From Devosia sp. (GTDB lineage Bacteria > Pseudomonadota > Alphaproteobacteria > Rhizobiales > Devosiaceae): a DNA stretch of 64,000 bases. The DNA lies in NCBI GenBank assembly GCA_041916675.1, contig JAYRZB010000005.1, forward strand, positions 121,789-185,788, given 5' to 3'. The translations under genes were made by a program, and so were the position numbers. Position 1 is the first letter of the stretch; each line of letters starts with the position of its first letter. Below the pieces are notes generated by a model. It saw only the letters and a list, made by a program, of their open reading frames with translations. It was not told the origin of the DNA and searched no databases. Shown piece after piece: positions 12,570-29,999 of the stretch.

Positions 12570-12573
12570 CGGG

Positions 12574-12972
12574 TCAGGCCGGGGTGAACACGGGCAGGGG
12601 CGGCAGGCCCTCGCGCGTGCGCCAGGCCACGCTCACCCGGTCGCCGATGCGGGCGGTTTCGGCCACAATATTGGTCAGCAGCCTTGGGCCCTCGTCGAGA
12701 TCCACCAGCGCCAGCAGGTAGGGCGGGGTCAGTTCAGGCACCACGGGCATGTGCATGGTGGTCAGCGAATAGATGGTGCCCTTGCCGCTGGCGGGCACCC
12801 ACTCGAGGTCTGTGCTTTCGCAAGCCAGGCAGAACGGGCGCGGATAGAACTGGTGGCCGCCGCAGGCCCGGCAATGCTGCACGGTCAGCCGATGGTCGGC
12901 GCAGGCCTGCCAGAAGGCCTCGGTGGTGGGGTCGGCGGCGCCGAGATCGGAAAACGACAGAGGGTCACTCAC
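12574..12972 (-). CDS. DUF35 Zn-ribbon/OB-fold protein (thiolase partner)
   Basis: CRACGGHQFYPRPFCLACES zinc ribbon followed by an OB fold. I place the start at GTG 12972, overlapping the thiolase stop by 8 nt, giving a typical 133 aa. The track start at 13044 is probably too long. Confidence 0.75.
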   Translation of the reverse strand: MSDPLSFSDLGAADPTTEAFWQACADHRLTVQHCRACGGHQFYPRPFCLACESTDLEWVPASGKGTIYSLTTMHMPVVPELTPPYLLALVDLDEGPRLLTNIVAETARIGDRVSVAWRTREGLPPLPVFTPA

Positions 12973-14190: not shown

Positions 14191-14211
14191 ATGAATATGA
14201 AGTCAATATCA
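14191..14211. promoter_or_regulatory. operator-like imperfect palindrome, copy 1 (ATGAATATGAAGTCAATATCA)
   Basis: Read directly from the sequence. Lies in the divergent thiolase/TetR intergenic region, about 76 nt from thiolase ATG 14125. Near-identical copies at 16465..16485 (reverse) and 29979..29999. Confidence 0.6.
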
Positions 14212-14352
14212 ATTCTGTGTCTGACATGTGCACGGTTGTGCCGGCGCGGTTGATCGGGACGCGTGGCGGTGCAATATCGGGCATCGGAGGACGGCACATT
14301 GGAAGCACAAAGTCGATTGCCTTCGGCCCCGGTGGCCGAACAGCCCGGCCCG

Positions 14353-15027
14353 ATGAAATATGGTGACTATCTTCTGGACCGACTGGCGACCCAGTCCTTC
14401 GCCTCAAAAGGCGATCGCACGCGCTATCGGCTGAAGGTGGCAGCGGCGCAGGCGCTCGAACGCATCGGCTACCAGGATATCAAGGTGGGCGATATCTGCG
14501 TGCAGGCCGAAGTGGCGCTGGGCACATTCTATGTCTACTACAAGGACAAGAACGAGATCGCCATGGAAGTGGTGCTCGATTTTGTCGAGCATCTTTATGA
14601 GCTGGCGCGCGAGGCCGGGCGCGGCAAATCCGAGTTCGATGCCATTGTCTCGACCAACCGCTTCTTCATTGCCGCCTATAGCGCCAATGCCGGGTTGATG
14701 AAGTGCCATGTGCAGCTCGAAAGCCAGCTCTCTGAATATCGCGAAGTGTTCCGGGCCAAGCATATTAAGTGGATCGAAGCCCTCGGGCGCTCCATCGCCA
14801 AGCGCGGCAACTATGGCGAGGATATGCCCGGCACCACGGTTGCGGTGGCCCGGGCGCTCGAAGGCATGGTGTTCCATCACCTTTATTCGGTGATCGTGAG
14901 CAGTGACACCCTGTTTGACGGGCAGGAGCCTGCCGATGCCGACGAACTGGCGCTGATGCTGGCCACCGTCTGGTATCGCGCCGTCTACTGCAAGGATCCT
15001 CCGCTCAGCGGGGACAGTTTATTTTGA
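14353..15027 (+). CDS. TetR/AcrR family transcriptional regulator
   Basis: TRYRLKVAAAQALERIGYQDIKVGDICVQAEVALGTFYVYYKDKNEI is a TetR N-terminal HTH. The start is taken at MKYGDY (14353); the track start at 14263 is possible. Confidence 0.85.
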   Translation: MKYGDYLLDRLATQSFASKGDRTRYRLKVAAAQALERIGYQDIKVGDICVQAEVALGTFYVYYKDKNEIAMEVVLDFVEHLYELAREAGRGKSEFDAIVSTNRFFIAAYSANAGLMKCHVQLESQLSEYREVFRAKHIKWIEALGRSIAKRGNYGEDMPGTTVAVARALEGMVFHHLYSVIVSSDTLFDGQEPADADELALMLATVWYRAVYCKDPPLSGDSLF

Positions 15028-15034
15028 GCGCGCG

Positions 15035-15140
15035 CACCCCCACCTTGATCCTCCCCCTGGAAGGGGGAGGAAATACGCAAGCCGTGAAACGCGGCCTCCC
15101 TCCCTCTTGAGGGGTAGGGATGGGGTGGGGGTGAGGGGAG
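15035..15140. repeat. nested palindromic intergenic element (REP-like), probable bidirectional terminator
   Basis: Outer stem CACCCCCACC (15035-44) / GGTGGGGGTG (15124-33). Inner perfect hairpin CCTCCCCCT-gga-AGGGGGAGG (15050-70) plus a second imperfect C-rich/G-rich hairpin. Lies between the convergent TetR and aminotransferase genes. Confidence 0.5.
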
Positions 15141-15185
15141 CCACCGACAGTCCAATGTGAACACTCCCCCGCTCAGCGGCGGCGC

Positions 15186-16394
15186 TTAATCGAGCGAGGC
15201 CATGTAGCGGCGGGTGGCGATGGCGAGGCGCCGCACGCCCTCGCGCAGCTTTTCGGGTGTATTGCGCGAAAAATTGACCCGCATGGCCGAACGCAGTCTG
15301 GCCTCCGGGTCAAAAACACTGCCGGGCACGAAGGCGACTTTTTCTTCGAGCGCGAACTGATAGAGCGCGTCGGTATCGATGCGCGGATCGCGGGTGCGCA
15401 TCCAGACGAACATGCCACCTGGCGGGTTTTCCCATTCAAACCAATTGGCAAGCTCGGCGCTGGCGGCCGAACACAGGGCATCGCGGCGGGCCCGATACTG
15501 GGCAACGATCTCGGGAATGTGCGCGGCCTCGCGGCCGCTTTCGAGCAGTTCGAGCGCCACGGCCTGAGTGAGCATCGAGCTTGAAAGGTCCGAGGACTGC
15601 TTGGCCACCACCATGGCCTGAATGATTTCGGGGGCGGCGATGGTCCAGCCGACGCGCAGGCCCGGCACGATCGATTTTGACAGCGTGCCCAGGTAGATCA
15701 CCGGTCCCTGATAGACGCCCTCGGGCTGCATGCGACCGTGAAGCGCCAGGATCGAGGGACCGGCGCTGCCATCGAGCTGCAGGGGCAGATAAGGATCGTC
15801 TTCGACCAGCCATGTCCCGGCGGCGATGACCTTTTCGAGCAGGGCCTGCCGGGCTTGGGTCGGCACCAGCGCGCCGGTGGGGTTGGAATAGTTGGGCACG
15901 GTGTAAACGAACTTGGCGCTGGCCAGCGTTGCCGGATCGCTCAGGCCCTGTGTCGCCCAGTCGAGCGGCACATAAGCAGGCTGGCGCGGCCGCCAGGCAT
16001 CGAGGGCGCCGACATAGGTGGGGAACTGGGCCACAACCTTGTCTTCGGGGTCGAGCAGTACCTTGCCGATCAGATCGAGCCCCTGCATGGCCCCGACGGT
16101 CAGCAGCACATTTTCAACACCGAAATGGCGGCCGGTTTCGCGGCTGATGCGCTCGGCAATATGCTGGCGCAGGGCGGGGAATCCTTCGACCGGGCCGTAT
16201 TCCAGCGCTGCGGCGCCCCAGCGGTTCAGCGCCGCGGTCGAGGCTTCCGCAATGGCATCGGTGGGGTAGAATTCAGAGGCGGGCAGGCCGCCCGCCATAG
16301 AAATGAAATCGGCCTGGCCGCCGATTTTGAGGAACTGCTGGGTGATGGTGTTGCTTTGCGAGAGCCACCGCGCGAATGCTGGTTTCGGCGCCAT
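15186..16394 (-). CDS. PLP-dependent aminotransferase, class I/II (ARO8/LysN-like)
   Basis: 402 aa. Typical fold-type I pattern with YTVPNYSNPTG and GTLSKSIVPGLRVGW (Lys for PLP). Confidence 0.85.
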   Translation of the reverse strand: MAPKPAFARWLSQSNTITQQFLKIGGQADFISMAGGLPASEFYPTDAIAEASTAALNRWGAAALEYGPVEGFPALRQHIAERISRETGRHFGVENVLLTVGAMQGLDLIGKVLLDPEDKVVAQFPTYVGALDAWRPRQPAYVPLDWATQGLSDPATLASAKFVYTVPNYSNPTGALVPTQARQALLEKVIAAGTWLVEDDPYLPLQLDGSAGPSILALHGRMQPEGVYQGPVIYLGTLSKSIVPGLRVGWTIAAPEIIQAMVVAKQSSDLSSSMLTQAVALELLESGREAAHIPEIVAQYRARRDALCSAASAELANWFEWENPPGGMFVWMRTRDPRIDTDALYQFALEEKVAFVPGSVFDPEARLRSAMRVNFSRNTPEKLREGVRRLAIATRRYMASLD

Positions 16395-16464
16395 CAGGAA
16401 GGCTCCCTGCTGCTGGCCCCGGGGCTTTGCCGGGGCAATGAGAACAAAGGTGTTTGGTCAGAAA

Positions 16465-16485
16465 TGATATTGACTTCATATTCAT
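16465..16485. promoter_or_regulatory. operator-like imperfect palindrome, copy 2 (reverse complement ATGAATATGAAGTCAATATCA)
   Basis: Plus strand reads TGATATTGACTTCATATTCAT. Lies between the divergent aminotransferase (ATG 16394) and the SDR operon (ATG 16671). Confidence 0.6.
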
Positions 16486-16670
16486 TTTCATTACTGCTGT
16501 CAAACCAGTCACGCTCGATCTGGCTCGCCTGAGGCCATCGCCACGGCCTTTGACGACCCCGTTGGGCAGGCGGAACAAACCAGCTGGCGGCGTGTGAGGA
16601 CCTGTGCGTTACTGCTTGGATGCACTCGATTTGGCCCGTGATTTTCCCTTTTTGCTCGGAGCGTTTGCTG

Positions 16671-17570
16671 ATGGCCGGTCTTGATCTCAAGGGCCGCGTG
16701 GCCATCGTTACCGGCGGCGGGCGCGGGCTGGGGCGCGGTTATGCGCTGGCACTGGCCGCCCATGGCGCATCGGTCGTGGTCAACGATCTGGGCGGAGACC
16801 TGCATGGGGCCGGGCGCGATGCCACCCCTGCGCAATCGGTGGTCGCAGAAATCGAGGCGGCAGGGGGCAAGGCAGTGGTCAGCGGGCACGATGTGGCCGA
16901 CTGGGCCGATGCCAGGGCCATGGTGGGCCTTGCCATTGAGCGCTTCGGGCGGCTCGACGTGCTGGTCAACAATGCCGGCATCCTGCGCGACCGGCTGTTT
17001 GCCAATATGAGCGAAGAAGAGTGGGATGCGGTGATCCGCGTGCACCTCAAAGGCCATGCCGCACCGGCGCGGCATGCCATGGAATACTGGCGGGCCGAGG
17101 GCAAGGCCGGGCGGGCGGTGGCCGGATCGATTGTGCACACCACGTCGCTGGCAGGGCTGGTGGGCAATTTCGGGCAGGCCAATTATGCGGCAGCCAAGGC
17201 CGCCGTGATCGGGTTATCGCGCACGCTGGCGCTTGAAGGCGTCAAGTATGGCGTGCGCTCCAATGCCGTATCGCCTTCGGCGCGAACGCGCATCGAAGGC
17301 TCGCTGGAGCCGCCACCGGAAGGTGTGTTCGATGTATTCGCTCCTGAAAATGTGGCGCCGTTGATTTGCTGGCTGGCCCATGCCGATTGTCCCGCCAGCG
17401 GGCAGGTGTTCCAGGCTTATGGCGACCGGGTGGAAGTGCTGGCGCCCAGCGCCATCGCCGTGGACCTGCGCACCAGCGGCCGCTGGACGCTTGATGCCCT
17501 TGATGCGGCATTGACCGGCAAGCTTCCGGCCCTGCCCACTCTTGGCACCTTTGTTGAGGGATTGCCGTGA
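16671..17570 (+). CDS. SDR-family (3R)-hydroxyacyl-CoA dehydrogenase-like oxidoreductase (MFE-2 N-terminal type)
   Basis: MAGLDLKGRVAIVTGGGRGLGRGYALALAAHGASVVVNDLG, VNNAGILRD, and the catalytic YAAAK of the SDR fold. Confidence 0.85.
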   Translation: MAGLDLKGRVAIVTGGGRGLGRGYALALAAHGASVVVNDLGGDLHGAGRDATPAQSVVAEIEAAGGKAVVSGHDVADWADARAMVGLAIERFGRLDVLVNNAGILRDRLFANMSEEEWDAVIRVHLKGHAAPARHAMEYWRAEGKAGRAVAGSIVHTTSLAGLVGNFGQANYAAAKAAVIGLSRTLALEGVKYGVRSNAVSPSARTRIEGSLEPPPEGVFDVFAPENVAPLICWLAHADCPASGQVFQAYGDRVEVLAPSAIAVDLRTSGRWTLDALDAALTGKLPALPTLGTFVEGLP

Positions 17571-18391
17571 GCGCCGGACCGGCCAGCCTGATCGGAATTA
17601 TTCAGGACTCCGAGGAGTTCCGCACCAACAGCCATCGGCTTGCCGATTTCGCCCGGGCCGTGGATGACACCAACCCCGCGCATTTGACCGGTCAGTATGC
17701 GCCGCCGGTGTTCCACCACATTCCGGTCATGCAATCGATGATGGGGGTGATCGGCAGGCTGACGCAGGGCTTTGTCATGCATGGCGAGCACGACTTCGTC
17801 TTTGCCCACCCGATGGTGCCCGGCATGCGGCTCTTCACCACTTCAAGTCTGGTGGGCGTGCGCGGCATCAAGGCGGGCCTTTCCTTCATCATCCAGTCCG
17901 ATATCCGCACCGCGGATGGCGCGCTGGTCTCAAGCCAGTTCAGCACCTGCCTCGAGCGTGGAACCGCGTCCGATATTGCCGTCGGCACCTTTCCGCCCGC
18001 TCGCCCAAAGCCCGAACGCGCCGGTGCTGCCGAGGTGCGCTATGCGCTCACTAGTGACCAGACGCGGCGCTATGCCGATGCGGCGCGGGACTATTCGCCC
18101 TATACCATCGATCCGGCAGTGGCGGCCCAGCACGGTTTCCCGGCCCCGATTGTCCATGGCATGTGCACGCTGGCCTTCGCGGCGCGGGCCATTGTCGACG
18201 CGCATTGCGGCGGGCTGACGCCGCGGCTCAAGCGGCTCGGCGCGCGCTTTGCCCACCCTCTTTTCTTGTTGCCCGGCCAGACACTGACCGTGTCGCACTG
18301 GGCCGGGCCGGACGGGACAGTGGGCTTTGAGGCCATCGACCGGGACGGAAACGCCGTGATCAGGAACGGTTACGCGGAGGTTTCGGCATGA
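17567..18391 (+). CDS. double hot-dog MaoC-family hydratase/dehydratase
   Basis: 274 aa. GTGA overlap with the SDR stop. C-terminal half has the MaoC-like segment DYSPYTIDPAVAAQHGFPAPIVHGM. Confidence 0.75.
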   Translation: MSAGPASLIGIIQDSEEFRTNSHRLADFARAVDDTNPAHLTGQYAPPVFHHIPVMQSMMGVIGRLTQGFVMHGEHDFVFAHPMVPGMRLFTTSSLVGVRGIKAGLSFIIQSDIRTADGALVSSQFSTCLERGTASDIAVGTFPPARPKPERAGAAEVRYALTSDQTRRYADAARDYSPYTIDPAVAAQHGFPAPIVHGMCTLAFAARAIVDAHCGGLTPRLKRLGARFAHPLFLLPGQTLTVSHWAGPDGTVGFEAIDRDGNAVIRNGYAEVSA

Positions 18392-20046
18392 ACACCCATC
18401 CGGCCCGCCAGCAACTCGGCCTGACCGGGGCGCCCGAACGTCCTGCCGATTGGGTACGACACGAAAACATTGCGCCGGACTGGAGTGCGCTGCCGCAGGC
18501 GCACCTGATCGAGATCGTGCACAAGGGCTGCCTCGAGGACCCCGAGCGCCCGGCCATCATCATCGATGGCGGCCCGGTAATGACGCGGCGCGAGTTGCTC
18601 GACCAGTGCCAGCGCTTTGCCGGCTATCTCAGCACCCGCATCAAACCCGGCGACCGGGTGGTGGTGATGCTAGACAATCGGATTGAGTTCATGGTGGCGC
18701 TCTTCGCCATCATCGCCAATCGCGGCACCTTGGTTTCGATTCCGCCCACCGCCATGGCGTTCGACGCCGGCCACATCGTCAAGGATGCCCGTCCTGTGGC
18801 GGCGATCGTGGGGGCCGCGCAAAGGCAGGTGCTCGACACAGTGCTGCCCGACGCGCCGTTTCTTGAGCACATGATCGTGGTCGAGGGTGATGAGCCGAAT
18901 GGGCTCGCCCCCTATCAGGACGCGCCCGCGCTCGATTTTGGCGCCGTGGCCTGCGAGCGTGAGGACATTGTTGCGGTCTACTACACCTCGGGCACTACCG
19001 GCGCGCCGAAGGGCTGCATGCTGCATCACGGCTGGTGGATGCGCATCATCGATCTCGACCTGCGCCTGTTCCGGCGCGGCTGGCAGGACCGGCAGCTGTG
19101 CTGCCTGCCGTTCTATTATGCCGACCCGGCGCTGCAACTGCTGACATCGCTGGCGTCGCGCGGCACCATGGTGGCGATGCGGCGCTTTTCGGTCTCGCGC
19201 TTCTGGGAGGTGGTGACGCGCTATGATGCCACCGAAATCCTCTCGATTGCCTCGATCCCGGCGCTGCTGCTCAAAGGCGTACCCGGCCCGGCCGAGCGCG
19301 ATCACAGCGTGCGGCTGGCCATCCATGCGGGCCTGCCCAAGGAACTGCATCAGGAACTGCTCGACCGCTATGGCTTTCACTGGCTCAATCAATATGGCAG
19401 CACCGAGGGCGGAATGATGAGCCGGGTGCCGTTGCACCTGGCCGATGACCTGGTGGGCACCGGCACTATGGGCGTTGAACCCCCGGGGGTGACGGTGCGG
19501 CTGGTCGATGAGAACGACAACGACGTGTCCGTGGGCGAGCCCGGCGAATGCCTGATCGGCGGGCCGGACCTTTATGCCGGGTACCTGAACCGCCCCGAAG
19601 TCACCGCCGAGGCCAATCGCGGCGGCTGGTATCATTCCGGCGATATCGCCCGGCGCGATGAGCGGGGCCTGCTCTATTTCGTGGGCCGCAAGAAAGAGAT
19701 CATCCGTCGCTCGGGCGAGAATATTTCGGCGGCCGAGGTTGAATCCGTCCTGCGCTCACATCCAGCAGTCGTCGAGGCTGCGGTGATCCCGGTTCCGGAC
19801 CAGTTGCGTGGTGAAGAGGTGAAAGCCTATATCCAGTTCCGGCCCGGAGAAGCGCTGGCACCCGAGGCGGTGATTGATTTCTGCAGGGCCAGGCTGGCCG
19901 CGTTCAAAATTCCGCGTTTCCTTGAGTTTCGCGACACTGACTTTGAACGGACGCCCTCGATGCGCGTTCAAAAGCAGGCCCTGCTCAAGGAGAAATCCGA
20001 TCTGCGCCAAGGCGCCTGGGATCGGGAATCGGGAACATGGATATGA
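18388..20046 (+). CDS. AMP-dependent acyl-CoA synthetase/ligase
   Basis: 552 aa. AMP-binding motif YYTSGTTGAPKG, YGSTEG, GWYHSGD. ATGA overlap with the upstream gene. Confidence 0.9.
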   Translation: MNTHPARQQLGLTGAPERPADWVRHENIAPDWSALPQAHLIEIVHKGCLEDPERPAIIIDGGPVMTRRELLDQCQRFAGYLSTRIKPGDRVVVMLDNRIEFMVALFAIIANRGTLVSIPPTAMAFDAGHIVKDARPVAAIVGAAQRQVLDTVLPDAPFLEHMIVVEGDEPNGLAPYQDAPALDFGAVACEREDIVAVYYTSGTTGAPKGCMLHHGWWMRIIDLDLRLFRRGWQDRQLCCLPFYYADPALQLLTSLASRGTMVAMRRFSVSRFWEVVTRYDATEILSIASIPALLLKGVPGPAERDHSVRLAIHAGLPKELHQELLDRYGFHWLNQYGSTEGGMMSRVPLHLADDLVGTGTMGVEPPGVTVRLVDENDNDVSVGEPGECLIGGPDLYAGYLNRPEVTAEANRGGWYHSGDIARRDERGLLYFVGRKKEIIRRSGENISAAEVESVLRSHPAVVEAAVIPVPDQLRGEEVKAYIQFRPGEALAPEAVIDFCRARLAAFKIPRFLEFRDTDFERTPSMRVQKQALLKEKSDLRQGAWDRESGTWI

Positions 20047-20456
20047 AGATCGGCGACATCCTTGGCGAGTGGGACTATCAGGTCGAGGCCGGCAAAGTGG
20101 CCGAATTCGGCCGGGCGGTGCATGACATCCATGCCGGAAAGACCAAGATTGCTCCGCCGACCTTTCCCGTCGTCGCCTCGGCCGAATTCGTCGAAAGGCT
20201 GGTTACCGAAATTCTCGGGCTCGACCGCACCCGCACCGTGCATGGCGAGCAGGAATACGAGTATTTTGAGCCGATCAGGGTTGGTGATAAACTGCATTGC
20301 ACGGCGCGCCTGACCGGGGACGAAACCAAGACCGGCAAGCGCGGTGGGCGGATGCGGATTGTGACCACCGAGATTGAATATGTCTCGGCGCAGACAGGCA
20401 CGCTGATCTGCCGGGATGTGACGAGGTCGATTGAAACCGCCGCGGTGCCGGCATGA
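20037..20456 (+). CDS. MaoC N-terminal-type (FAS1-like) hot-dog subunit, probably non-catalytic
   Basis: 139 aa single hot-dog. Overlaps neighbours on both sides, which suggests a HadA/ChsH-type heteromer with the next gene. Confidence 0.7.
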   Translation: MDMKIGDILGEWDYQVEAGKVAEFGRAVHDIHAGKTKIAPPTFPVVASAEFVERLVTEILGLDRTRTVHGEQEYEYFEPIRVGDKLHCTARLTGDETKTGKRGGRMRIVTTEIEYVSAQTGTLICRDVTRSIETAAVPA

Positions 20457-20842
20457 CCAGGGAGCCGGTGCAGCCGATCACCTTCCCGGCCCTCACCCGC
20501 ACCGACCTCGTGCGTTATGCCGGGGCGTCCGGAGACTTCAACCCGCTGCATCACGATGCCCGTTTTGCCGCTGCTGGCGGGCTCAAGGACGTGATGGGGC
20601 ACGGCATGCTGTCGGCCGGGCTTCTGGCCTCGGCCCTGACCCGCTGGTTTGGCCCGGGCAGCGTATTGCGGTTCAAGACGCGTTTCAGGAGCCCGGTCTG
20701 GCCCGGCGACGTGCTGACGGCGCGTTGCCTGTCCATGGTCAGCAATCCGGAAGGATCGCACCTGGTGCTCGAACTGGTGCGTGGTGACAGCGATGTGGTG
20801 CTCACCGCCACCGCGACGGTTCGTATAGGGGAGACGCGTTAG
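20453..20842 (+). CDS. MaoC-family (R)-specific enoyl-CoA hydratase subunit
   Basis: 129 aa. YAGASGDFNPLHHDARFA hydratase-2 motif. ATGA overlap with the upstream hot-dog gene. Confidence 0.85.
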   Translation: MTREPVQPITFPALTRTDLVRYAGASGDFNPLHHDARFAAAGGLKDVMGHGMLSAGLLASALTRWFGPGSVLRFKTRFRSPVWPGDVLTARCLSMVSNPEGSHLVLELVRGDSDVVLTATATVRIGETR

Positions 20843-20844
20843 CC

Positions 20845-21312
20845 ATGCCGGCCATTCAAACCACCATCCGCCAGGCGGCGCCCGGCGACCGCGATGGCTT
20901 TCTGGAAATGTGGGCCGATTTCGTCGCCATGATCCCCGGTGAGCCGGGCAACCACACGATGGGCGCGCTCAACTGGGAGCGCATCATTAATCCGACCCAT
21001 CCGCTCGAATGCATCCTGGCGGTCGATGCGGCGGGGCGGGCCCATGGCTTTACGCTCTATCTGGCGTTTCCCTTTACCTGGAGCACCGGCAATGTCTGCT
21101 ATTTGCAGGATATCTATGTGCGCGGGGAAAGCCGGGGCAACGGCATTGCCCAGCAGTTGATCGCCCACCTGAAATCGATCGGCGAGGCCGAAGGCTGGTT
21201 CAAGATTTTCTGGATGACCCAGCACGACAATGCGCCAGCCCAGCGCGTCTATGATAAGGTGGCCAGGCGGATGGACTATATCCGCTACGACCTGACCATC
21301 GCAGAACCCTGA
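20845..21312 (+). CDS. GNAT family N-acetyltransferase
   Basis: 155 aa. LQDIYVRGESRGNGIAQQLIAHL is the acetyl-CoA-binding Q/RxxGxG/A motif. Confidence 0.85.
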   Translation: MPAIQTTIRQAAPGDRDGFLEMWADFVAMIPGEPGNHTMGALNWERIINPTHPLECILAVDAAGRAHGFTLYLAFPFTWSTGNVCYLQDIYVRGESRGNGIAQQLIAHLKSIGEAEGWFKIFWMTQHDNAPAQRVYDKVARRMDYIRYDLTIAEP

Positions 21313-21344
21313 GCCGCCAGCCGGGTGACCGGCGGCTCGATTCC

Positions 21345-23396
21345 TTAGTCGACCAGTTCGATCAGCAGGTTGCCGTGGCTGTCGACTTCCATCTCCTGCT
21401 TTTCCAGCAGCAGGACGGTGGTGGTGGGCAATTCCAGTACCGCCGGACCCTTGACCTTGCCGCCGGCCCCGATCAGGCCTGCGTCATAGATCGGCACATC
21501 CTTGAATCCCTTGCCCAGGTAGACCGGGCGTGACCCCTTGGGCGTGATCTTGCCCTTGTGCCTGGCAATGGCCGCCCCGCGCCGTTCCGCCCCGCCGGTG
21601 TCGCCAATGGCGCGCACCTTCCAGGTGGTGAACTCAACCGTGTCGGCTTCGTCCTTGATGGTATAGATGCGCTCATGCTGGGCGTGGAAGGCGGCCACCA
21701 GCTCCTTGAGTGCGCCCTTGCCCAGCTTGCCGGTTGCGCCATCAATGGGCACCTCGATATCCCAGGACTGGTAGAGATAGCGGCCCTGGAAGGCGAACTC
21801 GAAGCGCTGGTCTTTCCCGGCAATGCCGGAGCGCTTGAGGAACGCTGCGCCGCGCGCCTTCAGAGATGCCAACAGAGCGTTGACGCCTTCGAGGTCGAAA
21901 TGCCGATCGGTGGTGTTGAGCGTGCCGGTCTCTTCCCAGCGCACGTCTGAAATCAACCCACCATAGGCGCTGAGCCCGGCGGCAAAGCGCGGCACCATCA
22001 GGCTTTTGATGCCCAGGATGCGGGCCATGTCGCCGATATGGCAGGCCGTGGCGCCGCCGCCGGAGACGACATAGCTTTCGCGCGGATCGATGCCTTCGTT
22101 GACCGTGATGTCTTCAATCGCCCCGATCATGGAGTGATTGGTGGTGGTATAGATCGCATAGGCCGCTTCCGGCACGCTGATCTTGAGCTGTTTGGCGATC
22201 TTGCCGATGGCCGCTTCCGCCTTGGCGCGGTCAAGCTTGATGCGGCCGCCGAGGAAATAGTCCGGGTCGATGATGCCGAGCACCACATTGGCATCGGTCA
22301 CCGTGGGTTCGGTGCCGCCGCGGCTGTAGCAGGCCGGGCCGGGCACGGCGCTGGCGCTGTGCGGGCCCACCCGCAACAGGCCACCGGCATCGACCCAGGC
22401 AATCGAGCCGCCCCCGGCGCCGACCGAGCGCACATCGATCTTGGGAATGCCGAGCATTTCCATGCCGAAGGTGGCCTCAGGGGTGACCACCAGATGCCGG
22501 TTGCGCAGCGCGGAAACGTCAAAGGTCGTGCCGCCCATATCCACCACGATCACATCGCTGGCAGTGGTCAGGTTGATGGCGGCGATGGGAGCCAGCGTTG
22601 GTCCCGACATCACCGAATAGATCGGGCGCTCGACAATGGCTTCGGGCGGCATCATGCCGCCGACGCAATTGGCAATCAGCAGTTCGCCTGCATAGCCCGC
22701 ATCTTTGAGCGCTTCGGTCAGCTTGCCGACATATTCGCTGACGATGGGGTAGAGCGAAGCGTTGATCGCGGTGGAAATGGTGCGGCGGTATTCGCGCGGA
22801 ATGGGGTTGAGCTCATGGCTCAATGTCACCGGAATGCCCGGCAGCTCTTCCGCCAGGATCTCGCGCACCCGCCGCTCGTGGCTGGGGTTGACGATCGACC
22901 ACAACAGGCACACGGCGATGGCCTCGACCTTGACGGCGCGGAAATGCGCCGCAGCAGCCCGTACATCGGCTTCGTTGAGCGGCTCGATCTCGTTGCCCAT
23001 GGCATCGATGCGCCCATGCACTTCGAAGGTGCGGTTGCGGTGGATATAGGGTGGGGGAAAATCGATCTTGATGTTGAAGGCCCGTTTGCGCGGGGATTCG
23101 CGCAGGGTCAGGATATCGGGGTGGCCGAAATTGCAGATCAGCCCGGTCGGTGCCACCTTGCCCTCGACCAGCGCATTGGTCGAAACCGTCGTGCCGTGCA
23201 CGATCATGTCGGTGTTATCGAGGAAGGTCTTGAGGTCCATGCCGTGCGCCCTGGCGGCCACATCAAGCACGTCGATAAAGCCGCGCTCGAAATGGCCCGG
23301 CGTTGTCGGCGACTTGTGGATTTCAAGGTCGGCACCATCGCGGTGCAGCACCAGGTCCGTAAACGTCCCGCCAATATCGATGCAGGCGACAAACAT
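21345..23396 (-). CDS. hydantoinase/oxoprolinase family protein, A (HyuA-type) subunit
   Basis: 683 aa. MFVACIDIGGTFTDLV N-terminus and VVDMGGTTFDVS second ASKHA phosphate motif. Confidence 0.9.
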   Translation of the reverse strand: MFVACIDIGGTFTDLVLHRDGADLEIHKSPTTPGHFERGFIDVLDVAARAHGMDLKTFLDNTDMIVHGTTVSTNALVEGKVAPTGLICNFGHPDILTLRESPRKRAFNIKIDFPPPYIHRNRTFEVHGRIDAMGNEIEPLNEADVRAAAAHFRAVKVEAIAVCLLWSIVNPSHERRVREILAEELPGIPVTLSHELNPIPREYRRTISTAINASLYPIVSEYVGKLTEALKDAGYAGELLIANCVGGMMPPEAIVERPIYSVMSGPTLAPIAAINLTTASDVIVVDMGGTTFDVSALRNRHLVVTPEATFGMEMLGIPKIDVRSVGAGGGSIAWVDAGGLLRVGPHSASAVPGPACYSRGGTEPTVTDANVVLGIIDPDYFLGGRIKLDRAKAEAAIGKIAKQLKISVPEAAYAIYTTTNHSMIGAIEDITVNEGIDPRESYVVSGGGATACHIGDMARILGIKSLMVPRFAAGLSAYGGLISDVRWEETGTLNTTDRHFDLEGVNALLASLKARGAAFLKRSGIAGKDQRFEFAFQGRYLYQSWDIEVPIDGATGKLGKGALKELVAAFHAQHERIYTIKDEADTVEFTTWKVRAIGDTGGAERRGAAIARHKGKITPKGSRPVYLGKGFKDVPIYDAGLIGAGGKVKGPAVLELPTTTVLLLEKQEMEVDSHGNLLIELVD

Positions 23397-23405
23397 CAGT
23401 TTCTC

Positions 23406-24446
23406 CTATGACTTGGCAGGTGCGGCGGTCGGCTGGCGCTTGCGCGGCCAGCCGATTTCAGTGTCGCCCAAAAGGCCCGACGGGCGCAGCACCAGGATGA
23501 TGAGCAGCAGGGCGGCGAGAACAATTTCCTGCAGCCCGGGCGGGGCGGAAATGGCCATGCCACCAAGCTCGATTCCGCGTTCAACCGTGCGCAGCAGTTC
23601 CGAGACGGTCGAGACCAGCACCACGCCGACAAATGCCCCGGTCAGGCTGCGCATGCCGCCCACAACCAGCATGGTCAGGGTGACAAAGGTGAGATCGAGA
23701 TAGAAAGTATTGGCGGTGATGGTGCCGATAAAGTGCGAGAACAGCATGCCACCCATCGCCACCACCATGGCGCTGATGACAAAGGCGATCAGGCGTTCGC
23801 GGCTGATATCGATGCCGGTTGCGGCCGCCGCGACCTCGTTTTCGCGCGCGCAGCGCGCCAGCAGCGAATGCCGGGTCAGCCCATAGATGGCTGCCACCAG
23901 AATGGCCAGCGAGGCACCCCCGAACGCCACCCAGAGGTTGGTGTAGCGCGGCAGGCCGACCAGCGCCTGACGGCCCCCGGTCACCTGCTGCCAGTTCGAT
24001 GCCACGACATAGACAATGATCAAAAGGGCAAAGGTGGCCATGGAGGGGGCAATGCCGCGCAGGCGGGCAAGCGGCCAGCCGACCAGAAACGCCACCACGC
24101 CAACCCCGATCAGCACGATCACCATGGCCATCGGCCAGGGCAATTGAATGGCCTCGACCATGCCGGGCAGGTCGAGCAGGGCGCCCTTGCGGGCCGGGGC
24201 GAGGGTGAGAATGGCCGAGCTGTAGGCGCCAAGCGACATGAAGGCGACATGGCCAAACGAGAAGATGCCGGAATTGCCCACAAAGATGAACAGCCCGACC
24301 ACCACGACCAGCTTGATCATGGCCTCGATCACCGTGCGCTGCAGGGCAGGGGGCACAGTGGTGGCGACAAGAGAAATCACCAGCAGGGTGGCGATCAGGA
24401 TCGCCGCGGTCTGCAGGGGGCGCAGGGCGGAATCTGCCATGGTCAC
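23406..24446 (-). CDS. branched-chain amino acid-type ABC transporter permease (LivM-like)
   Basis: 346 aa polytopic membrane protein with LivM-type topology and sequence. Confidence 0.9.
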   Translation of the reverse strand: MTMADSALRPLQTAAILIATLLVISLVATTVPPALQRTVIEAMIKLVVVVGLFIFVGNSGIFSFGHVAFMSLGAYSSAILTLAPARKGALLDLPGMVEAIQLPWPMAMVIVLIGVGVVAFLVGWPLARLRGIAPSMATFALLIIVYVVASNWQQVTGGRQALVGLPRYTNLWVAFGGASLAILVAAIYGLTRHSLLARCARENEVAAAATGIDISRERLIAFVISAMVVAMGGMLFSHFIGTITANTFYLDLTFVTLTMLVVGGMRSLTGAFVGVVLVSTVSELLRTVERGIELGGMAISAPPGLQEIVLAALLLIILVLRPSGLLGDTEIGWPRKRQPTAAPAKS

Positions 24447-25320
24447 ACGCGCTCCCGGTTGGCTTTGCTCATCAGCAGCCCATCAGGCCGCCAGAGCAGG
24501 AACAGAATAAAGATCAGGAAGACGAAGGCATCGCGATAGGGGCGCAGCTCAACCGGCAGATAGGCCTGAAGCGAGACGGAGACGACCCCGACAAGGAAGC
24601 CGCCAAGCGCTGCACCGGCGACCGAGCCCATGCCCCCGATCACCGAGGCGACAAAGGCGATCAGGACGATCGAGACGCCCATTTTGTAGGAAACGCTGCC
24701 GGTCTGGGCCACCAGGTAAATCGAGACCATGGTGGCCAGCACGCCCGAGATGGCAAAGGCAAAGGCGATGACGCGGTTGGCGCGCACCCCGACCAGCCGG
24801 GCCATGGTGAAATCTTCGGCGGCGGCCCGCATCTGCAGGCCGATGCGCGAGAATTTAAAGAAGGCCACCAGCCCGCCCATGAGCAGCAGGGTGACAATGA
24901 TGGTGACGATCTGCAGCAGCGGAATGCGCAGGCCGCCGAACTCGATGGCTGTGCCCAGTTCGGAGAGGAACGATACCCCGATGGCGCGCGAGCCGAAGAC
25001 CAGGAGCACGATATGCTGAACAAAGTAGGACACAGCGAACGAGGAGATCAGCAGCGTCGACGGGCTGGCCTTGCGCAGCGGGCGAAAGGCGACTCGCTCC
25101 ATGCCGAGTGCAAGCAGGGTGACCACCATGATGGCGCCCAGCATCATGACCAGCAGCGGCTGGCCGGAGAGGGTGAACAGCGAAAAGCCACCCACCATGA
25201 TCAGTTCGCCATGGGCGAAGTTGATCAGTCGCATGATCGAAAAGATCAGGCCAATCCCCAGTGCGGCCAGCGCGTAGATGGCACCAAGGCTGATGGCATC
25301 GATGGCGTTCTGCAGAAAGA

Positions 25321-25324
<4 letters not shown>
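24443..25324 (-). CDS. branched-chain amino acid-type ABC transporter permease (LivH-like)
   Basis: 293 aa. MIFLQNAIDAISLGAIYALAALGIGLIFSIMRLINFAHGE is a typical LivH N-terminus. Confidence 0.9.
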
Positions 25325-26046
<722 letters not shown>

Positions 26047-26049
26047 GGG

Positions 26050-26805
26050 CTAGTTCTCCTCGCCAAAATAGGCGGCGCGCACTTTCGGATCGGTGCGGAT
26101 TTCGGCTGTCGTGCCCTCGGCCAGCGTACGGCCGAGCTGGAGCACGTGGATGCGGTGGCAGAGTTCGAACACCAGCGACATGCGATGCTCGATAAACAGG
26201 ATTCCGCAATCGAGTTTATGGCTGATGTCGCGCACGATCTGGGCCAGTTCGGCGCATTCATTGTCGTTGAGCCCGGCCGCCGGTTCATCCATCAGCAGGA
26301 ACTTGGGCCGCATGGCAACGGCCCGCGCAATGCCAACCCGTCGCTCCTGACCAAAGGGCAGGGTGCCCGCGGGCCGGTCGAGCTGCTGGGCAAGACCCAT
26401 TTCCGTCAGGATGCGGACCGCCTCGTCACGCGCCTCGCGGCGGGTCAGGCCGATGGCGACGCCCCCGGCCTCGACATTTTCCAGCGCCGTCAACCCAGCG
26501 AAAGGCAAAACGCTCTGGAAGGTGCGGACCAGACCGCGCTGGCTGCGTTCGTGCGGCTTCCAGCCGGCAATATCGATGCCGCCGAGCCTGACGCTGCCGC
26601 GGGTGACGGCCTGGAAACCGGTCAGGACATTGATGAGCGTGGTCTTGCCCGCCCCGTTGGGCCCGATCAGCCCGAGGATTTCGCGGGGCCCGAGGGTGAG
26701 GCTGACCGCCTCGACCGCCCGCAGGCCCTGGAAGTCGACGACGATATCGTCGACTTCCAGTTGCGCCGTTGACGCCTGTACCTGATTGATCAACTGCGCA
26801 AACAT
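26050..26805 (-). CDS. ABC transporter ATP-binding protein (LivG-like)
   Basis: Walker A GPNGAGKTT, Walker B FLLMDEPAAG, LivG-type C-terminus. Confidence 0.9.
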   Translation of the reverse strand: MFAQLINQVQASTAQLEVDDIVVDFQGLRAVEAVSLTLGPREILGLIGPNGAGKTTLINVLTGFQAVTRGSVRLGGIDIAGWKPHERSQRGLVRTFQSVLPFAGLTALENVEAGGVAIGLTRREARDEAVRILTEMGLAQQLDRPAGTLPFGQERRVGIARAVAMRPKFLLMDEPAAGLNDNECAELAQIVRDISHKLDCGILFIEHRMSLVFELCHRIHVLQLGRTLAEGTTAEIRTDPKVRAAYFGEEN

Positions 26806-26825
26806 TTTCTGCTAGGTGGTCCGGA

Positions 26826-28007
26826 CTACTGAGGCATCTGGGCGGCTCGGACGATGCCGACCACATTGCCCGGCTTGCCATCCTGAACCTTGAGAAGGAT
26901 CAGGTCGCGCTGCATGTTGATGTGGTTTTCGGCCGTAAAGCTCGTCGGTCCGGCCAGCAGGGGCACATCCACGAAGCTTTCAAGGATTGGGCGCACGGCT
27001 TCGGCATCGAGCGTTCCGGCCTGTTCAACCGCATAGCTCCAGGCCTGGATCACCGAGTATCCGGTGACCGCGTGCGAGGTGGTGGGCGGAGCGCCGAACT
27101 TGGCCTTGAACTTTTCCATGAACTGGGCCACGTCGGGCCTTGTGTCATTGCCAAAGATCGAGGCGTAGGTGACGAGGTAGAAGTCCGACAGGTTGGGGAC
27201 CGCTTCAAGCCAATAGTCGCCATCCCAGGATTCCGAACCCAGCACGGGCTGGTTCACGCCCGCTGCGCGGAGCTGACGCAGGGCGCTGGAGCCGCCGGGC
27301 GGGAACGAGGCCAGCACCACGAAGTCCGGCTGGTCGGCCAGGGCCTTGATGCGGGTGATCTGGCTGGCGATCTGCGGGTCTTCGCCGCCAAACGTATCCT
27401 TGCCCAGCAGCGGCCCGGACAGTTCGGCCCAGCGGCGCTCGAAGGCGTCGGCGAAGCTGGCGTCAAAGGCAATAGTGGTATCGAGCAGCAGATAGGGCTT
27501 GCGCCAGCCCTGTTCGTTATAGGCCCATTCGGCGAGGGCCACGGCCTGTCCGGGCGCGCCGGTGGCCATGGTGAAGGCGTTCGGGCCAATGCCGATCGGT
27601 CCGAATTTGGGGTCGCCCGCACAGGTCGAGAAGGTAATCAGCGCGGCTGCGTCCGCCACCGAGGCTGCGGCCCCGCCATAATCGTAGTCGCAGGTCACCA
27701 CGACCATCTGCGCGCCCTTGTCGATGACATCCTGCGCTGCCGTTGCGCCATAGGCGATGTCTGACTTGGTGTCCGAGTAGATGAGCTCGAGCTGCTTGCC
27801 CAGCAGCCCGCCTTCGGCATTGATTTCCTCAATGCGGATTTCCATGGCCTTGGCCGGGCCTTCGTCATAAGGCGCAATGGCGCCCGACTGGGCGATGGCC
27901 GCACCGATGATGATCTTTTCCTGTGCCATGGCCGTGGTGGTGGCCGCAAGGCCCGCCGCCAGGATCACTGCACCCATACTCAAGGTCATACAATTAAGCT
28001 TAGTCAT
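26826..28007 (-). CDS. periplasmic substrate-binding protein, LivJ/amide-urea (Peripla_BP_6) family
   Basis: 393 aa. Signal peptide ending TTAMAQE, then IIIGAAIAQSGAIAPYDEG, typical of cluster-4 SBPs. Confidence 0.9.
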   Translation of the reverse strand: MTKLNCMTLSMGAVILAAGLAATTTAMAQEKIIIGAAIAQSGAIAPYDEGPAKAMEIRIEEINAEGGLLGKQLELIYSDTKSDIAYGATAAQDVIDKGAQMVVVTCDYDYGGAAASVADAAALITFSTCAGDPKFGPIGIGPNAFTMATGAPGQAVALAEWAYNEQGWRKPYLLLDTTIAFDASFADAFERRWAELSGPLLGKDTFGGEDPQIASQITRIKALADQPDFVVLASFPPGGSSALRQLRAAGVNQPVLGSESWDGDYWLEAVPNLSDFYLVTYASIFGNDTRPDVAQFMEKFKAKFGAPPTTSHAVTGYSVIQAWSYAVEQAGTLDAEAVRPILESFVDVPLLAGPTSFTAENHINMQRDLILLKVQDGKPGNVVGIVRAAQMPQ

Positions 28008-28048
28008 TGACGTTCCCTCTGTATTTTTGAGCCGGCCAGTTCAGTTGT

Positions 28049-29848
28049 TCAGGAATGCACCTCGTTACGCAGGCTTTGCGTGGCGGCCTGATCGACCGCA
28101 TAGTCGACGCCGTTTTCACCCAGGGTGAGCGCCACGCCAAAGATCTCCTTTGCCAGTTCAGGGCGCAGCCACTTGCGGTTGACATCGTCTGCCACCCGCT
28201 GCGGGTCGCGCTTTTGCGGCTGGCCGTAACCGCCCCCGGCACAGGAACGATACAGCACTGCTTCGCCGTCGTAATAGGTGCCGGAAAAGAAATCGCTGAC
28301 CCGTTCCACCTTGCCCTTGGCGTCGCGCTTCCAGGTGCCCGAATTGGCCCCGGCCTTGCCGCCGAGCACGCCGCCGGCCGGAAACACCCCGCCGTCGCCG
28401 CACACATAAAGCGTCATGTCGCCGGTCAATGAGCGATAGGCGCCCTCGACTGCCGGCGCGCCGTTCCACTGGCCAAAGCCAATGCTGTCCTGGCTGATGC
28501 GGCGTTCTTCGACGAGAATGGGATAGGTCGCCTCGTCCACTTCGATGGAGTCGGTCACCATGATGCCGTTGCCCACCGAGCACTCATAGGTCAACCAGCC
28601 ATCATGGCCATGGTTGGCCGGGCCACCCGACAGGGCCATCATCAGTTGCGTGATATAGGGCACATGTTCTGCGCGGCGCTTGTCGATGCCAGAAACCACG
28701 CCCAGCGCCGCCGAGAAATTGCCGCCGCCTTCTGCCATGCCATAGGGTTCGCCCATCTGCGAGAAGGCGCATTGCACCGCATTGGCCAGCCGTTCATTGA
28801 CGTTGGATGTGGCGCAGGAGGTGCCGATGGGGTGGCTGGGCCGGCCAACCACGCAATTGTCGCGCAACAGCGGCACAATGCGGCTCGAACTGCCCTCGTT
28901 GTGCGGCACTCCGGCATCGAGATTGTAAAACACCCCGATCCGGCAAGAGGCGACCGCGCAGGCTTCGGTCAGGTTCAGCCCGCCGGGCACGCAATCGGGG
29001 TTGTCACGCACATCGACGGTGATCAGGCCCTTCTTGGGGTCCACCGTGACTTTGGCGGTAATCTCGATGCCCTCGTCGGCAACCCCGGCGACGGGATCGT
29101 GCTTGACGGTATAGCTGAAGGTGCCGGCAGGCAGTTTGCGGATGGCGGCAATTGCCCGGCGCTCGCCATAATCCATCCAGGCTTCGATGAAGTCGCGAAT
29201 GGTGTCGATGCCGTATTTGGCCACCAGTTCCTTCAGGCGTCGCTCGCCGGTGCGGCAGGCGCCGACCTGGGCGCGATAGTCGCCGTGCCAGATATTGGAA
29301 ACACGGATTTTCTGCAGCCCGATGCGGATGATATCGGCCTTGTCGGTGAAATTCTCCTGCACACGCACGCAGGGGAAATGCACCCCTTCCTCATAGATCG
29401 TGCTGGCAAACGGCAGGTAGGTCGATGGTTCCGGTGCTCCGATATCGGCATGGTGTGAGCGAGACAGGGTCCAGAACAGGGGCACGCCGTCAAAAAACAC
29501 CGGCACGCACAAGGTCAGGTCGGCATGGTGGGTCACGCCATAGAACGGGCTGTTGTTGAGAAAAGCGTCGCCTTCCTTCACATCGTCAAACAGTTCGGTG
29601 ATCGGCTTGGTGGTCAATTCCAGCGCGTTGACGTGGATTGGCAGGGCTTCCTCCACCGAGACCAGCCGATGGTCGTATGTCAGGATGCCGCAGGACATGT
29701 CGCGCGCATTCTTGATCACGCTCGATCGCGAGGCCTTCATGACCGTGTTGGTCATTTCGCGGATGATTGATTCAAACCGGCTGGAAAGAACGGCAAGCAG
29801 GGTGGGATCGAAATCCGCAACTGATCTGGATTTGGTCGCCTGTCGCAT
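28049..29848 (-). CDS. hydantoinase B/oxoprolinase family protein (HyuB-type subunit)
   Basis: 599 aa. FDPTLLAVLSSRFESIIREMTNTVMKASRSSVIKNARDMSCGI is the canonical HyuB N-terminus. Confidence 0.9.
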   Translation of the reverse strand: MRQATKSRSVADFDPTLLAVLSSRFESIIREMTNTVMKASRSSVIKNARDMSCGILTYDHRLVSVEEALPIHVNALELTTKPITELFDDVKEGDAFLNNSPFYGVTHHADLTLCVPVFFDGVPLFWTLSRSHHADIGAPEPSTYLPFASTIYEEGVHFPCVRVQENFTDKADIIRIGLQKIRVSNIWHGDYRAQVGACRTGERRLKELVAKYGIDTIRDFIEAWMDYGERRAIAAIRKLPAGTFSYTVKHDPVAGVADEGIEITAKVTVDPKKGLITVDVRDNPDCVPGGLNLTEACAVASCRIGVFYNLDAGVPHNEGSSSRIVPLLRDNCVVGRPSHPIGTSCATSNVNERLANAVQCAFSQMGEPYGMAEGGGNFSAALGVVSGIDKRRAEHVPYITQLMMALSGGPANHGHDGWLTYECSVGNGIMVTDSIEVDEATYPILVEERRISQDSIGFGQWNGAPAVEGAYRSLTGDMTLYVCGDGGVFPAGGVLGGKAGANSGTWKRDAKGKVERVSDFFSGTYYDGEAVLYRSCAGGGYGQPQKRDPQRVADDVNRKWLRPELAKEIFGVALTLGENGVDYAVDQAATQSLRNEVHS

Positions 29849-29978
29849 GCGGTACCGTGCCCCTCATAAACGGTAAAAGCGGCTCCCGCCGTAGCGCGTC
29901 TGCCATGCCCCTCAGCATGGCAATCGCCCTTGTCGGCATCAAATCCGACTTGGCTGGAACCCGTCAAGAGAAGCATAA

Positions 29979-29999
29979 ATGAAATTGAAGTCAATATCA
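29979..29999. promoter_or_regulatory. operator-like imperfect palindrome, copy 3 (ATGAAATTGAAGTCAATATCA)
   Basis: About 140 nt upstream of hyuB-type ATG 29848. 19 of 21 positions are identical to copies 1 and 2. Confidence 0.6.

Follow-up and report, generated by a model that had tools for sequence, protein, structure and literature searches.

A conserved palindrome predicted to serve as a TetR-family operator at a catabolic locus of Devosia sp.

We analyzed a window of 64 kb from the genome of a Devosia sp. (GenBank assembly GCA_041916675.1; contig JAYRZB010000005.1, positions 121,789 to 185,788 of the forward strand), and all positions given below for the window are counted from its first base. 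Three near-identical imperfect palindromes in its intergenic regions, here called O1, O2, and O3, are likely to be the operators of a TetR-family regulator encoded at the same locus (14299-15027). The motif joins genes for thiolase, DUF35, M20, and RraA proteins, an aminotransferase, SDR, MaoC, CoA ligase, and GNAT proteins, and hydantoinase-like and ABC transporter proteins (~19 kb) as one pathway, a connection that annotation alone cannot make. An initial annotation of the window had proposed such a single regulon, and the proposal is borne out by a motif that is near-invariant in otherwise diverged spacers and by the position of exact copies in related genomes, 37 of 37 of which stand by this gene set.

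Comparison among genomes makes the regulon a well-supported prediction. It also goes beyond the initial annotation by extending the predicted operator to 28 bp, by adding two target operons found in other genomes, by proposing a two-dimer design like that of FadR, and by mapping candidate promoters for the aminotransferase and tetR genes. It is common for conserved palindromes to define TetR regulons, and no general concept is altered here; the interest lies in an uncharacterized pathway delimited by a motif and in an operator variant with a 6-bp stagger.

Operator copies and their conservation

A pattern search of both strands of the window recovered the three copies reported by the initial annotation: ATGAATATGAAGTCAATATCA occupies 14191-14211 (+), 16465-16485 (-) is its exact reverse complement, and ATGAAATTGAAGTCAATATCA, with two mismatches to ATGAATATGAAGTCAATATCA, stands at 29979-29999 (+). 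No further match to the 21-mer with up to three mismatches was found within the 64 kb, and 100 of 100 dinucleotide-preserving shuffles of the window contained no match at all. The copies were then scored with a weight matrix made from 48 distinct orthologous sites. O2, O1, and O3 reached 56.2, 55.3, and 48.2 bits, respectively; the opposite-strand reading of O3 scored 21.7 bits, and all other positions in the window scored 8 bits or less. The predicted operators, each with the strand and operon that it faces, are as follows.

14192..14211 (extended 14187-14216), minus strand, towards the thiolase gene: operator O1, 20-bp core TGATATTGACTTCATATTCA, from pattern and weight matrix (55.3 bits)
16465..16484 (extended 16460-16489), plus strand, towards the SDR operon: operator O2, 20-bp core TGATATTGACTTCATATTCA (56.2 bits)
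29980..29999 (extended 29975-30004), minus strand, towards hyuB: operator O3, 20-bp core TGATATTGACTTCAATTTCA (48.2 bits)

The distance from core to ATG in the window is 67 nt for the thiolase gene, 71 nt for the aminotransferase gene, 136 nt for the SDR gene, and 132 nt for hyuB. The initial annotation had placed the copies 75 to 140 nt upstream of minus-strand starts, a range that needs correction, as the measured values for these starts are 67, 71, and 132 nt from the core.

An exact-pattern scan for TGAAWWTGAAGTCAATATCA in one genome per species (185,579 species) gave 48 stretches. Twenty-seven of them hold 37 exact sites in 15 high-GC Hyphomicrobiales genomes, and tblastn placed every one of the 37 sites beside homologs of the window genes. 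The carriers include Mesorhizobium spp., Pseudaminobacter soli, Kumtagia ephedrae, Taklimakanibacter albus, and metagenome-assembled genomes (MAGs) of Parvibaculaceae and Rhizobiaceae. Among Mesorhizobium-like bacteria, 15 or more species thus have this pathway, combined with differing uptake and ring-opening modules. The other 21 stretches are single matches in unrelated genomes (20 of low GC content, 0.30 to 0.52, and one GC-rich Hydrogenedentes MAG) and showed no homologs of the locus genes, apart from a remote ABC-ATPase similarity in L010; they were taken as chance. The exact copy in the Hydrogenedentes MAG (L049) has neither A/T flanks nor related genes nearby and was likewise treated as chance.

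Among the carriers, sites lie between the thiolase and tetR genes, between the aminotransferase and SDR genes, and upstream of hyuB-liv operons, the last in the same orientation in seven other genomes (L014, L019, L022, L023, L043, L045, and L052). Two additional targets were identified outside the window. The first is faced by one more exact copy of the operator, directly after the GNAT gene in three Mesorhizobium genomes (L030 1008-2600, L034 6180-7772, and L040 2150-5356), and consists of genes for an M81 (MlrC-like) peptidase and then a family-5 peptide-binding protein (Pfam); it has no counterpart in the window. The second is a PotD-type ABC operon divergent from hyuB, where a second, oppositely oriented copy of the motif stands 15 to 24 bp from the hyuB copy, so that one copy faces each operon (L023 3183-3237 and L043 6889-6952).

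Near-identical short intergenic palindromes could also be members of a dispersed repeat (REP/MITE-like), which the initial annotation had named as the finding that would undo the regulon, or could owe their identity to a recent horizontal transfer of the whole locus. The copies are locus specific, with three in the 64-kb window and one to four per genome among the 15 carrier species, always with this gene set. Mesorhizobium sp. ASY16-5R, with a complete chromosome of 7.09 Mb, has exactly four copies on it, and all four are at regulon genes. As for a transfer, similarity between copies and between genomes stops at ~28 bp, and the adjacent proteins are 57 to 90% identical. We regard a repeat or a recent transfer as extremely improbable.

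Phylogenetic footprinting, a check that the initial annotation had suggested, favors the operator assignment as well. Orthologous loci were retrieved through the TetR protein rather than the motif, by way of orthologs with 50 to 72% identity: L001 (Mesorhizobium), L004 (Microbaculum marinum), L005/L006 (GCA_016850285 and a JGI metagenome), and L055 (an ENA metagenome). Their TetR proteins are 50 to 63% identical to that of the window (alignment A1), and the gene order is kept, with thiolase-DUF35-M20 on one side of tetR, divergently transcribed, and SDR-MaoC-CoA ligase ... MaoC-N-MaoC-C-GNAT on the other. Each of these loci has the core in its thiolase/tetR spacer and again in its SDR spacer, with 17 to 20 of 20 bases identical, and the remaining spacer DNA is unalignable; the core is near-invariant within flanks that have diverged. 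Wherever an orthologous locus has the motif, one copy of the core occupies the thiolase/tetR spacer. Two loci with more distant regulators carry diverged sites that adjoin hyuAB or MaoC genes. In L057 (TetR 44 to 49% identical), these are TGTATATGACGTCAATTTCA and CGAAATTGACGTCGGCTTCA; in L056 (TetR 40 to 44% identical), TGATACTGACGTCAACTTCG lies between tetR and hyuA, and TGAGCTTGACATCAATTTCG immediately follows hyuB.

Operator architecture and the TetR-family regulator

The symmetric unit of the operator is a 20-bp core, TGA-N3-TGA-N2-TCA-N3-TCA, which reads TGAATATGAAGTCAATATCA in the window. The initial annotation had described an inverted repeat of ATGAWWWT and AWWWTCAT around GAAGTC; the palindrome itself is real (in the 22-mer ATGA...TCAT, self-complementarity holds at 7 of 11 positions), but it is better written in the form given here. 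Both differences that set O3 apart sit in one N3 spacer of the dyad, and the O3 variant also occurs at the thiolase-side site of Mesorhizobium L001, L050, and L051. The four TGA/TCA triplets do not vary in any of the 48 sites, which is partly by construction because the sites were gathered with this pattern. Once all sites are turned the same way, conservation is also seen at positions that the search pattern left free: A is found at positions -4 to -1 in 37 to 47 of the 48 sites, and T at +21, +23, and +24 in 41 to 47, mirroring the 5' A tract. Because this conservation beyond the pattern is symmetric, the predicted functional element is extended to ~28 bp, AAAATGAnnnTGAnnTCAnnnTCATTTT.

The core can be parsed as ATGAAT-ATGA-AGTCAA plus ATGAAG-TCAA-TATCAT, that is, as two hexamer-N4-hexamer repeats of 16 bp (TGA-N8-TCA) staggered by 6 bp. 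The hexamers are ATGAAT and ATGAAG and, on the other strand, TTGACT and ATGATA. As one TetR dimer could not use all four triplets, we infer by analogy that two dimers would bind each operator, on roughly opposite faces of the DNA. A ~28-bp operator with four recognition elements would imply two dimers in the manner of QacR-type binding, although QacR, unlike this TetR, is a multidrug-efflux regulator.

A closer parallel is FadR. In the structure of Bacillus halodurans FadR with DNA (5GPC), two dimers occupy a 21-bp pseudo-palindrome, GATGAATGAATACTCATTCAT, each on a 16-bp inverted repeat, the second repeat being shifted by 4 bp from the first; ATGA(A/G)T is the hexamer read by every monomer, with base contacts from Gly42 and Tyr45, and QacR is cited as the precedent for two TetR dimers on one operator (PMC5397183). 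The operator studied here has the same TGA-N8-TCA repeats in a hexamer-N4-hexamer arrangement, the same overlapping pair, and one perfect hexamer (ATGAAT). It differs in its stagger (6 bp versus 4 bp) and in that only one of the four hexamers fully matches ATGA(A/G)T. The variant would show, in a natural system, how much the stagger may differ when two TetR dimers share an operator.

The candidate repressor is encoded between the thiolase and aminotransferase genes.

14299..15027, plus strand: tetR, TetR/AcrR family, EthR/FadR-like, 242 aa; start codon TTG 14299, alternative starts GTG 14263 and ATG 14353

The start at ATG 14353 in the initial annotation should probably be moved to TTG 14299, because of a conserved ribosome-binding site (GGAGGA, 14286-14291) and the placement of the conserved promoter described below. 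The protein scored 24.7 to 25.0 bits with Pfam TetR_N and weakly with EthR_C; its orthologs carry Pfam EthR_C and PF00440. Seventy-five TetR homologs were found in the protein collection, which has no exact entry for the 224-aa form, the best relative being 88% identical. The recognition helix VALGTFYVY is unvaried among orthologs down to 39% identity, in keeping with the near-invariant operator. An AF2 model (pLDDT 84.5, pTM 0.79) has 10 helices in a TetR fold. Traits of the TetR/AcrR family found here are an N-terminal helix-turn-helix (HTH) domain, an all-helical two-domain fold, and a palindrome of ~15 to 30 bp near the target genes.

Foldseek ranked EthR first (E 1.5e-6) and, after it, the FadRs of Sulfolobus, Thermus, and Bacillus, which bind acyl-CoA; the probability was 1.00 for EthR, FadR, and many other TetR structures. 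EthR of Mycobacterium tuberculosis is the best structural match of the model (target-normalized TM-score, 0.71 to 0.80). It binds a long operator as a multimer; unlike this regulon, that of EthR consists of one monooxygenase gene. Among solved proteins, B. subtilis FadR (1vi0/3whb; E 4e-7) is nearest in sequence, with the A-x-G-T-x-Y-x-Y recognition motif of Bacillus FadR (YsiA; acyl-CoA-responsive) also present in the window TetR. The two regulons are alike in their CoA-dependent beta-oxidation-type enzymes and unlike in that the targets here are not canonical fad genes. Because the similarity to Bacillus FadR is only distant (16 to 19% identity in Foldseek, E 4e-7 over 150 residues, and EthR ranked ahead of it), the window TetR is judged from its sequence not to be a FadR/YsiA ortholog and is assigned to a separate subfamily.

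Another factor encoded elsewhere might bind the motif, leaving the TetR to control something else or a part of the set. Several hyuB-liv and M81 peptidase operons with the motif are indeed on a different contig from tetR or a long way from it (L014, L022, L052, and L030), and the tetR promoter is not under an operator. Against such a factor, the TetR is the only conserved regulator at the locus, the GerE, GntR, and LysR neighbors being restricted to one lineage each. A TetR ortholog adjoins every thiolase-side site with enough flank and is found wherever the fetched DNA spans its position, and 15 of 15 high-GC carriers have genes of the set. The operator hexamers and their geometry also resemble those at the operator of FadR, the closest solved relative of the TetR by sequence. 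A different binding factor is in our judgment improbable, and we retain the TetR as the likely ligand of O1 to O3.

Promoters and the mode of regulation

Candidate promoters could be mapped for two genes.

16475..16503, minus strand: candidate aminotransferase promoter, -35 TTGACA (16503-16498), 17-nt spacer, -10 TATGAA (16480-16475) inside O2
14250..14277, plus strand: candidate tetR promoter, TTGATC (14250-14255), 16 nt, CAATAT (14272-14277), conserved in orthologous loci

Of 14 distinct aminotransferase/SDR spacers, 13 have a (T/A)GTCAA box at a distance of exactly 13 nt from the core, on its far side; the box is missing from three spacers that have no aminotransferase gene (L004, L005/L006, and L055). 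The -10 box and start site of this candidate promoter would lie under the operator, a classical repression geometry. For tetR, most loci share TTGAT(A/T/C)-N16/17-C(A/G)ATAT followed by GGAGG and a start codon; a strict sigma-70 scan did not call the candidate in the window. In L020, L029, L032, and L033, a TTGAAA box 17 bp from TATGAA may give a second tetR promoter that is covered by the operator.

Sigma-70 and terminator scans of the three operator-bearing spacers gave a single weak match, which overlaps O2 on the minus strand (ATGAAA-16-TATCAT); O1 and O3 had none. Other assignments tried and rejected were TTGACT as a -35 box, TTGATA as a -35 box, and TATGAT-like boxes 6 nt past the core in thiolase spacers; in no case was the spacing canonical throughout the sites. 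A role as an RNA element or hairpin was also discarded: only 6 or 7 of 10 or 11 palindrome positions could pair, and an Rfam scan of the whole window found no RNA family at or near the three operator sites.

The core is asymmetric, and its TTGACT half faces a thiolase, SDR, hyuB, M81 peptidase, or PotD-type operon in all sites; it is never turned towards tetR or the aminotransferase gene. Because the asymmetric core always points at a catabolic operon, O2 would serve the SDR operon on the plus strand no less than the aminotransferase gene on the minus strand.

This fixed direction suits a different function, in which the motif is mainly a promoter module (-35-like TTGACT and UP-like AT tracts) recognized by RNA polymerase and sigma factor. 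In agreement with it, TATGAA on the other strand is the candidate -10 box of the aminotransferase promoter, and each site is an AT-rich island in DNA of 62 to 69% G+C. Scans, however, found no -10 box 16 to 18 bp past TTGACT in any site class (TCTGCT, TCTTCT, TGTGCT, etc.). Conservation is two-fold symmetric and includes the flanks (AAAATGA...TCATTTT), as expected of a dimeric protein and not of a directional promoter, and the conserved tetR promoter of the same loci is quite different. We consider a promoter module unlikely, if marginally less so than the other alternatives.

If the TetR does bind, it could still act as an activator or a dual regulator of the catabolic operons. The operator stands 61 to 200 nt upstream of the thiolase, SDR, and hyuB start codons across orthologous loci, for three of the four targets we were unable to assign a core promoter that overlaps it, and a fixed orientation is more typical of activator sites. 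On the other side, the aminotransferase -10 box and start would fall inside the operator, and nearly all characterized TetR-family proteins, FadR and EthR included, are ligand-released repressors. FadR has been described as a TetR-family repressor of this kind (PMC5397183). Activation is accordingly given a low probability, comparable to that of an unlinked binding factor, and repression by the locus-encoded TetR is preferred.

Several observations weigh against the assignment of O1 to O3 to a TetR repressor. Most of the 48 sites were retrieved by motif, so that the conservation of the core is partly by construction; the unbiased evidence consists of the protein-fetched loci and the flanking bases. 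In one locus with conserved synteny, L058 (TetR 48 to 52% identical), the thiolase/tetR spacer (2040-2163) has no convincing operator, its best match being 12 of 20 bases in ATGAATCTGGCCTCAAGAATTG. The TetR_N score of the window protein is barely above the cutoff of 24. A symmetric dimer does not explain the fixed orientation of the asymmetric center (GACTTC) and arms. For transcription towards the thiolase gene, the SDR gene, or hyuB, scans and inspection revealed no canonical sigma-70 pair of -35 and -10 boxes, and because these three directions offer no placeable promoter, the preference for repression over activation draws only on the habit of the family and on the aminotransferase promoter. 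Finally, the conserved tetR promoter begins 38 bp beyond O1 without overlapping it; because O1 does not cover this promoter, autoregulation of tetR is doubtful. The initial annotation had placed five transcription units under the TetR, and site conservation supports the single regulon, with tetR itself as the doubtful member.

Genes of the locus and a proposed pathway

The gene calls of the initial annotation were upheld by Pfam. Its SDR/MaoC/CoA-ligase/GNAT operon is present, with two further MaoC-type genes (20037-20842) that precede the GNAT gene. The operons and genes of the locus are listed below with the evidence for each.

10681..14125, minus strand: thiolase operon (Pfam, NCBIfam, conserved synteny)
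12965-14125, minus strand: SCP-x-type thiolase (Pfam)
12574-12972, minus strand: DUF35/ChsH2-type OB protein (Pfam)
11376-12569, minus strand: ArgE-like M20 deacylase (Pfam)
10681-11346, minus strand: RraA-like aldolase/decarboxylase (Pfam)
15186..16394, minus strand: class I/II aminotransferase (Pfam, NCBIfam)
16620..21312, plus strand: SDR operon, genes overlapping or 2 nt apart (Pfam, conserved synteny)
16620-17570, plus strand: SDR (Pfam)
17567-18391, plus strand: double-hotdog MaoC hydratase (Pfam)
18388-20046, plus strand: acyl-CoA ligase (Pfam)
20037-20456, plus strand: MaoC-N (Pfam)
20453-20842, plus strand: MaoC-C (Pfam)
20845-21312, plus strand: GNAT (Pfam)
21345..29848, minus strand: hyuB-liv-hyuA operon (Pfam)
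28049-29848, minus strand: hydantoinase B-like protein, HyuB (Pfam)
26826-28007, minus strand: Liv-type binding protein (Pfam)
26050-26805 and 25321-26046, minus strand: two ABC ATPases (Pfam)
24443-25324 and 23406-24446, minus strand: two permeases (Pfam)
21345-23396, minus strand: hydantoinase A-like protein, HyuA (Pfam)

The aminotransferase gene is found in most, not all, orthologous loci. Its best NCBIfam matches are the enzyme domains of MocR-type factors and MppQ/GntC/VioD-type enzymes; the latter, whose substrates are arginine-derived cyclic amino acids, may hint at the substrate class. A regulatory role for this protein was rejected, as only the enzyme domain of the MocR-type factors aligns and no HTH domain is present.

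For HyuA and HyuB, the nearest NCBIfam models are those of the caprolactamase subunits CapA and CapB, with scores of 564 and 276 against an equivalog cutoff of 1000. The caprolactam pathway of Pseudomonas jessenii proceeds through an ATP-dependent two-subunit caprolactamase, an aminotransferase, and then adipate oxidation (PMC6061476). Its logic of lactam opening, transamination, and CoA-dependent oxidation suits the gene set of the window. The likeness does not extend to the genes: CapA and CapB are the best models with scores far below their cutoff, the aminotransferase here belongs to class I/II and not to the omega class (class III), and the thiolase/DUF35, M20, RraA, and GNAT genes have no counterpart in the caprolactam pathway. 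On these scores, and with no omega-aminotransferase present, identification as a caprolactam catabolic cluster was rejected; that pathway offers the nearest precedent in its logic, not in its genes.

A second comparison concerns the ChsH1-ChsH2-Ltp2 side-chain cleavage system, which combines a MaoC hydratase pair with a thiolase-like protein and a DUF35 OB domain. In the window, the Pfam domains of the DUF35 protein bear the name of ChsH2, MaoC-N and MaoC-C form a split pair, and the thiolase is of the SCP-x type. The resemblance is one of domain content only. No steroid-degradation genes lie nearby.

The orthologous loci differ from the window in their front ends. The SDR operon of L001, L004, L005, L055, and L058 includes genes for an Amidohydro_1 enzyme and for an ABC transporter of the PotD type, whereas the SDR operon of the window has neither and a separate, operator-bearing hyuB-liv-hyuA operon is present instead (likewise in seven other genomes). 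Compared with L001 15639-20765, L004 14383-19748, and L055 11945-17203, window positions 21345-29848 appear to represent a non-orthologous module replacement. This pattern suggests that ring-opening and uptake front ends are interchangeable around one core pathway.

From these data, the following mechanism can be proposed. Without substrate, the TetR would occupy O1 to O3 with two dimers per operator on roughly opposite faces, as FadR does. The aminotransferase promoter would be blocked directly, its -10 box and start being inside O2, and the thiolase, SDR, and hyuB promoters would be blocked through overlapping elements; tetR would probably be expressed from its own uncovered promoter. The substrate would be imported by the Liv-type ABC transporter, and a cyclic amide or lactam would be opened by HyuA/HyuB at the expense of ATP. 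Amino and acyl groups would then be removed by the aminotransferase, the M20 deacylase, and the GNAT protein, and the side chain would be shortened by the CoA-dependent action of the CoA ligase, MaoC hydratases, SDR, and thiolase/DUF35 proteins. A pathway intermediate, probably an acyl-CoA formed by the CoA ligase of the regulon, would bind the EthR/FadR-like C-terminal domain and free the repressor. An acyl-CoA is the likeliest inducer because the regulon makes one and because the structural neighbors of the TetR bind acyl-CoA.

We tentatively extend this scheme to the carriers as a group, as a possibility that we hold with less than even confidence: a two-dimer TetR operator variant with a 6-bp stagger would mark an undescribed modular regulon of Hyphomicrobiales, in which interchangeable front ends feed one CoA-dependent core and an acyl-CoA is the inducer. 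The front ends would be the HyuAB lactamase with a Liv-type transporter, the Amidohydro_1 enzyme with a PotD-type transporter, and the M81 peptidase with a peptide transporter; the conserved core would comprise the CoA ligase, MaoC hydratases, SDR, thiolase/DUF35, M20, RraA, and GNAT proteins. A defined operator with a candidate repressor opens a route to the substrate and the inducer. If the modular scheme is true, the operator is a handle for substrate finding and regulon mapping in any carrier genome. A literature search for the core sequence returned mouse pseudoautosomal papers only, and one for the combination of DUF35, thiolase, MaoC, hydantoinase, and CoA ligase returned nothing. A megablast of positions 13500-17500 against the plasmid collection gave only 36- to 90-bp SDR fragments, indicating that the locus is on no known plasmid.

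Some further features of the window were noted. An unusually long gap of 660 bp (29849-30508) separates hyuB from a zinc alcohol dehydrogenase gene (30509-31636, plus strand). O3 lies near its left end, a single terminator-like hairpin is present at 30081-30064 (-), and the gap has no Rfam match and no open reading frame with a Pfam domain. On the thiolase side of the locus, a tRNA-Met (CAT) gene (5889-5965) is followed by a minus-strand pair encoding an IrrE/M78-type peptidase and an HTH_3 protein (7290-8830) and next by a gene for an AlkB-like 2OG-Fe(II) oxygenase (9032-9628); these genes may mark the edge of an integrated element beside the catabolic locus. Farther along, two terC RNA motifs (Rfam) stand in tandem at 33369-33429 and 33553-33609 (-), with scores (50.2 and 44.6 bits) that each exceed the gathering threshold, upstream of a gene for a TerC-family membrane protein (32360-33340).

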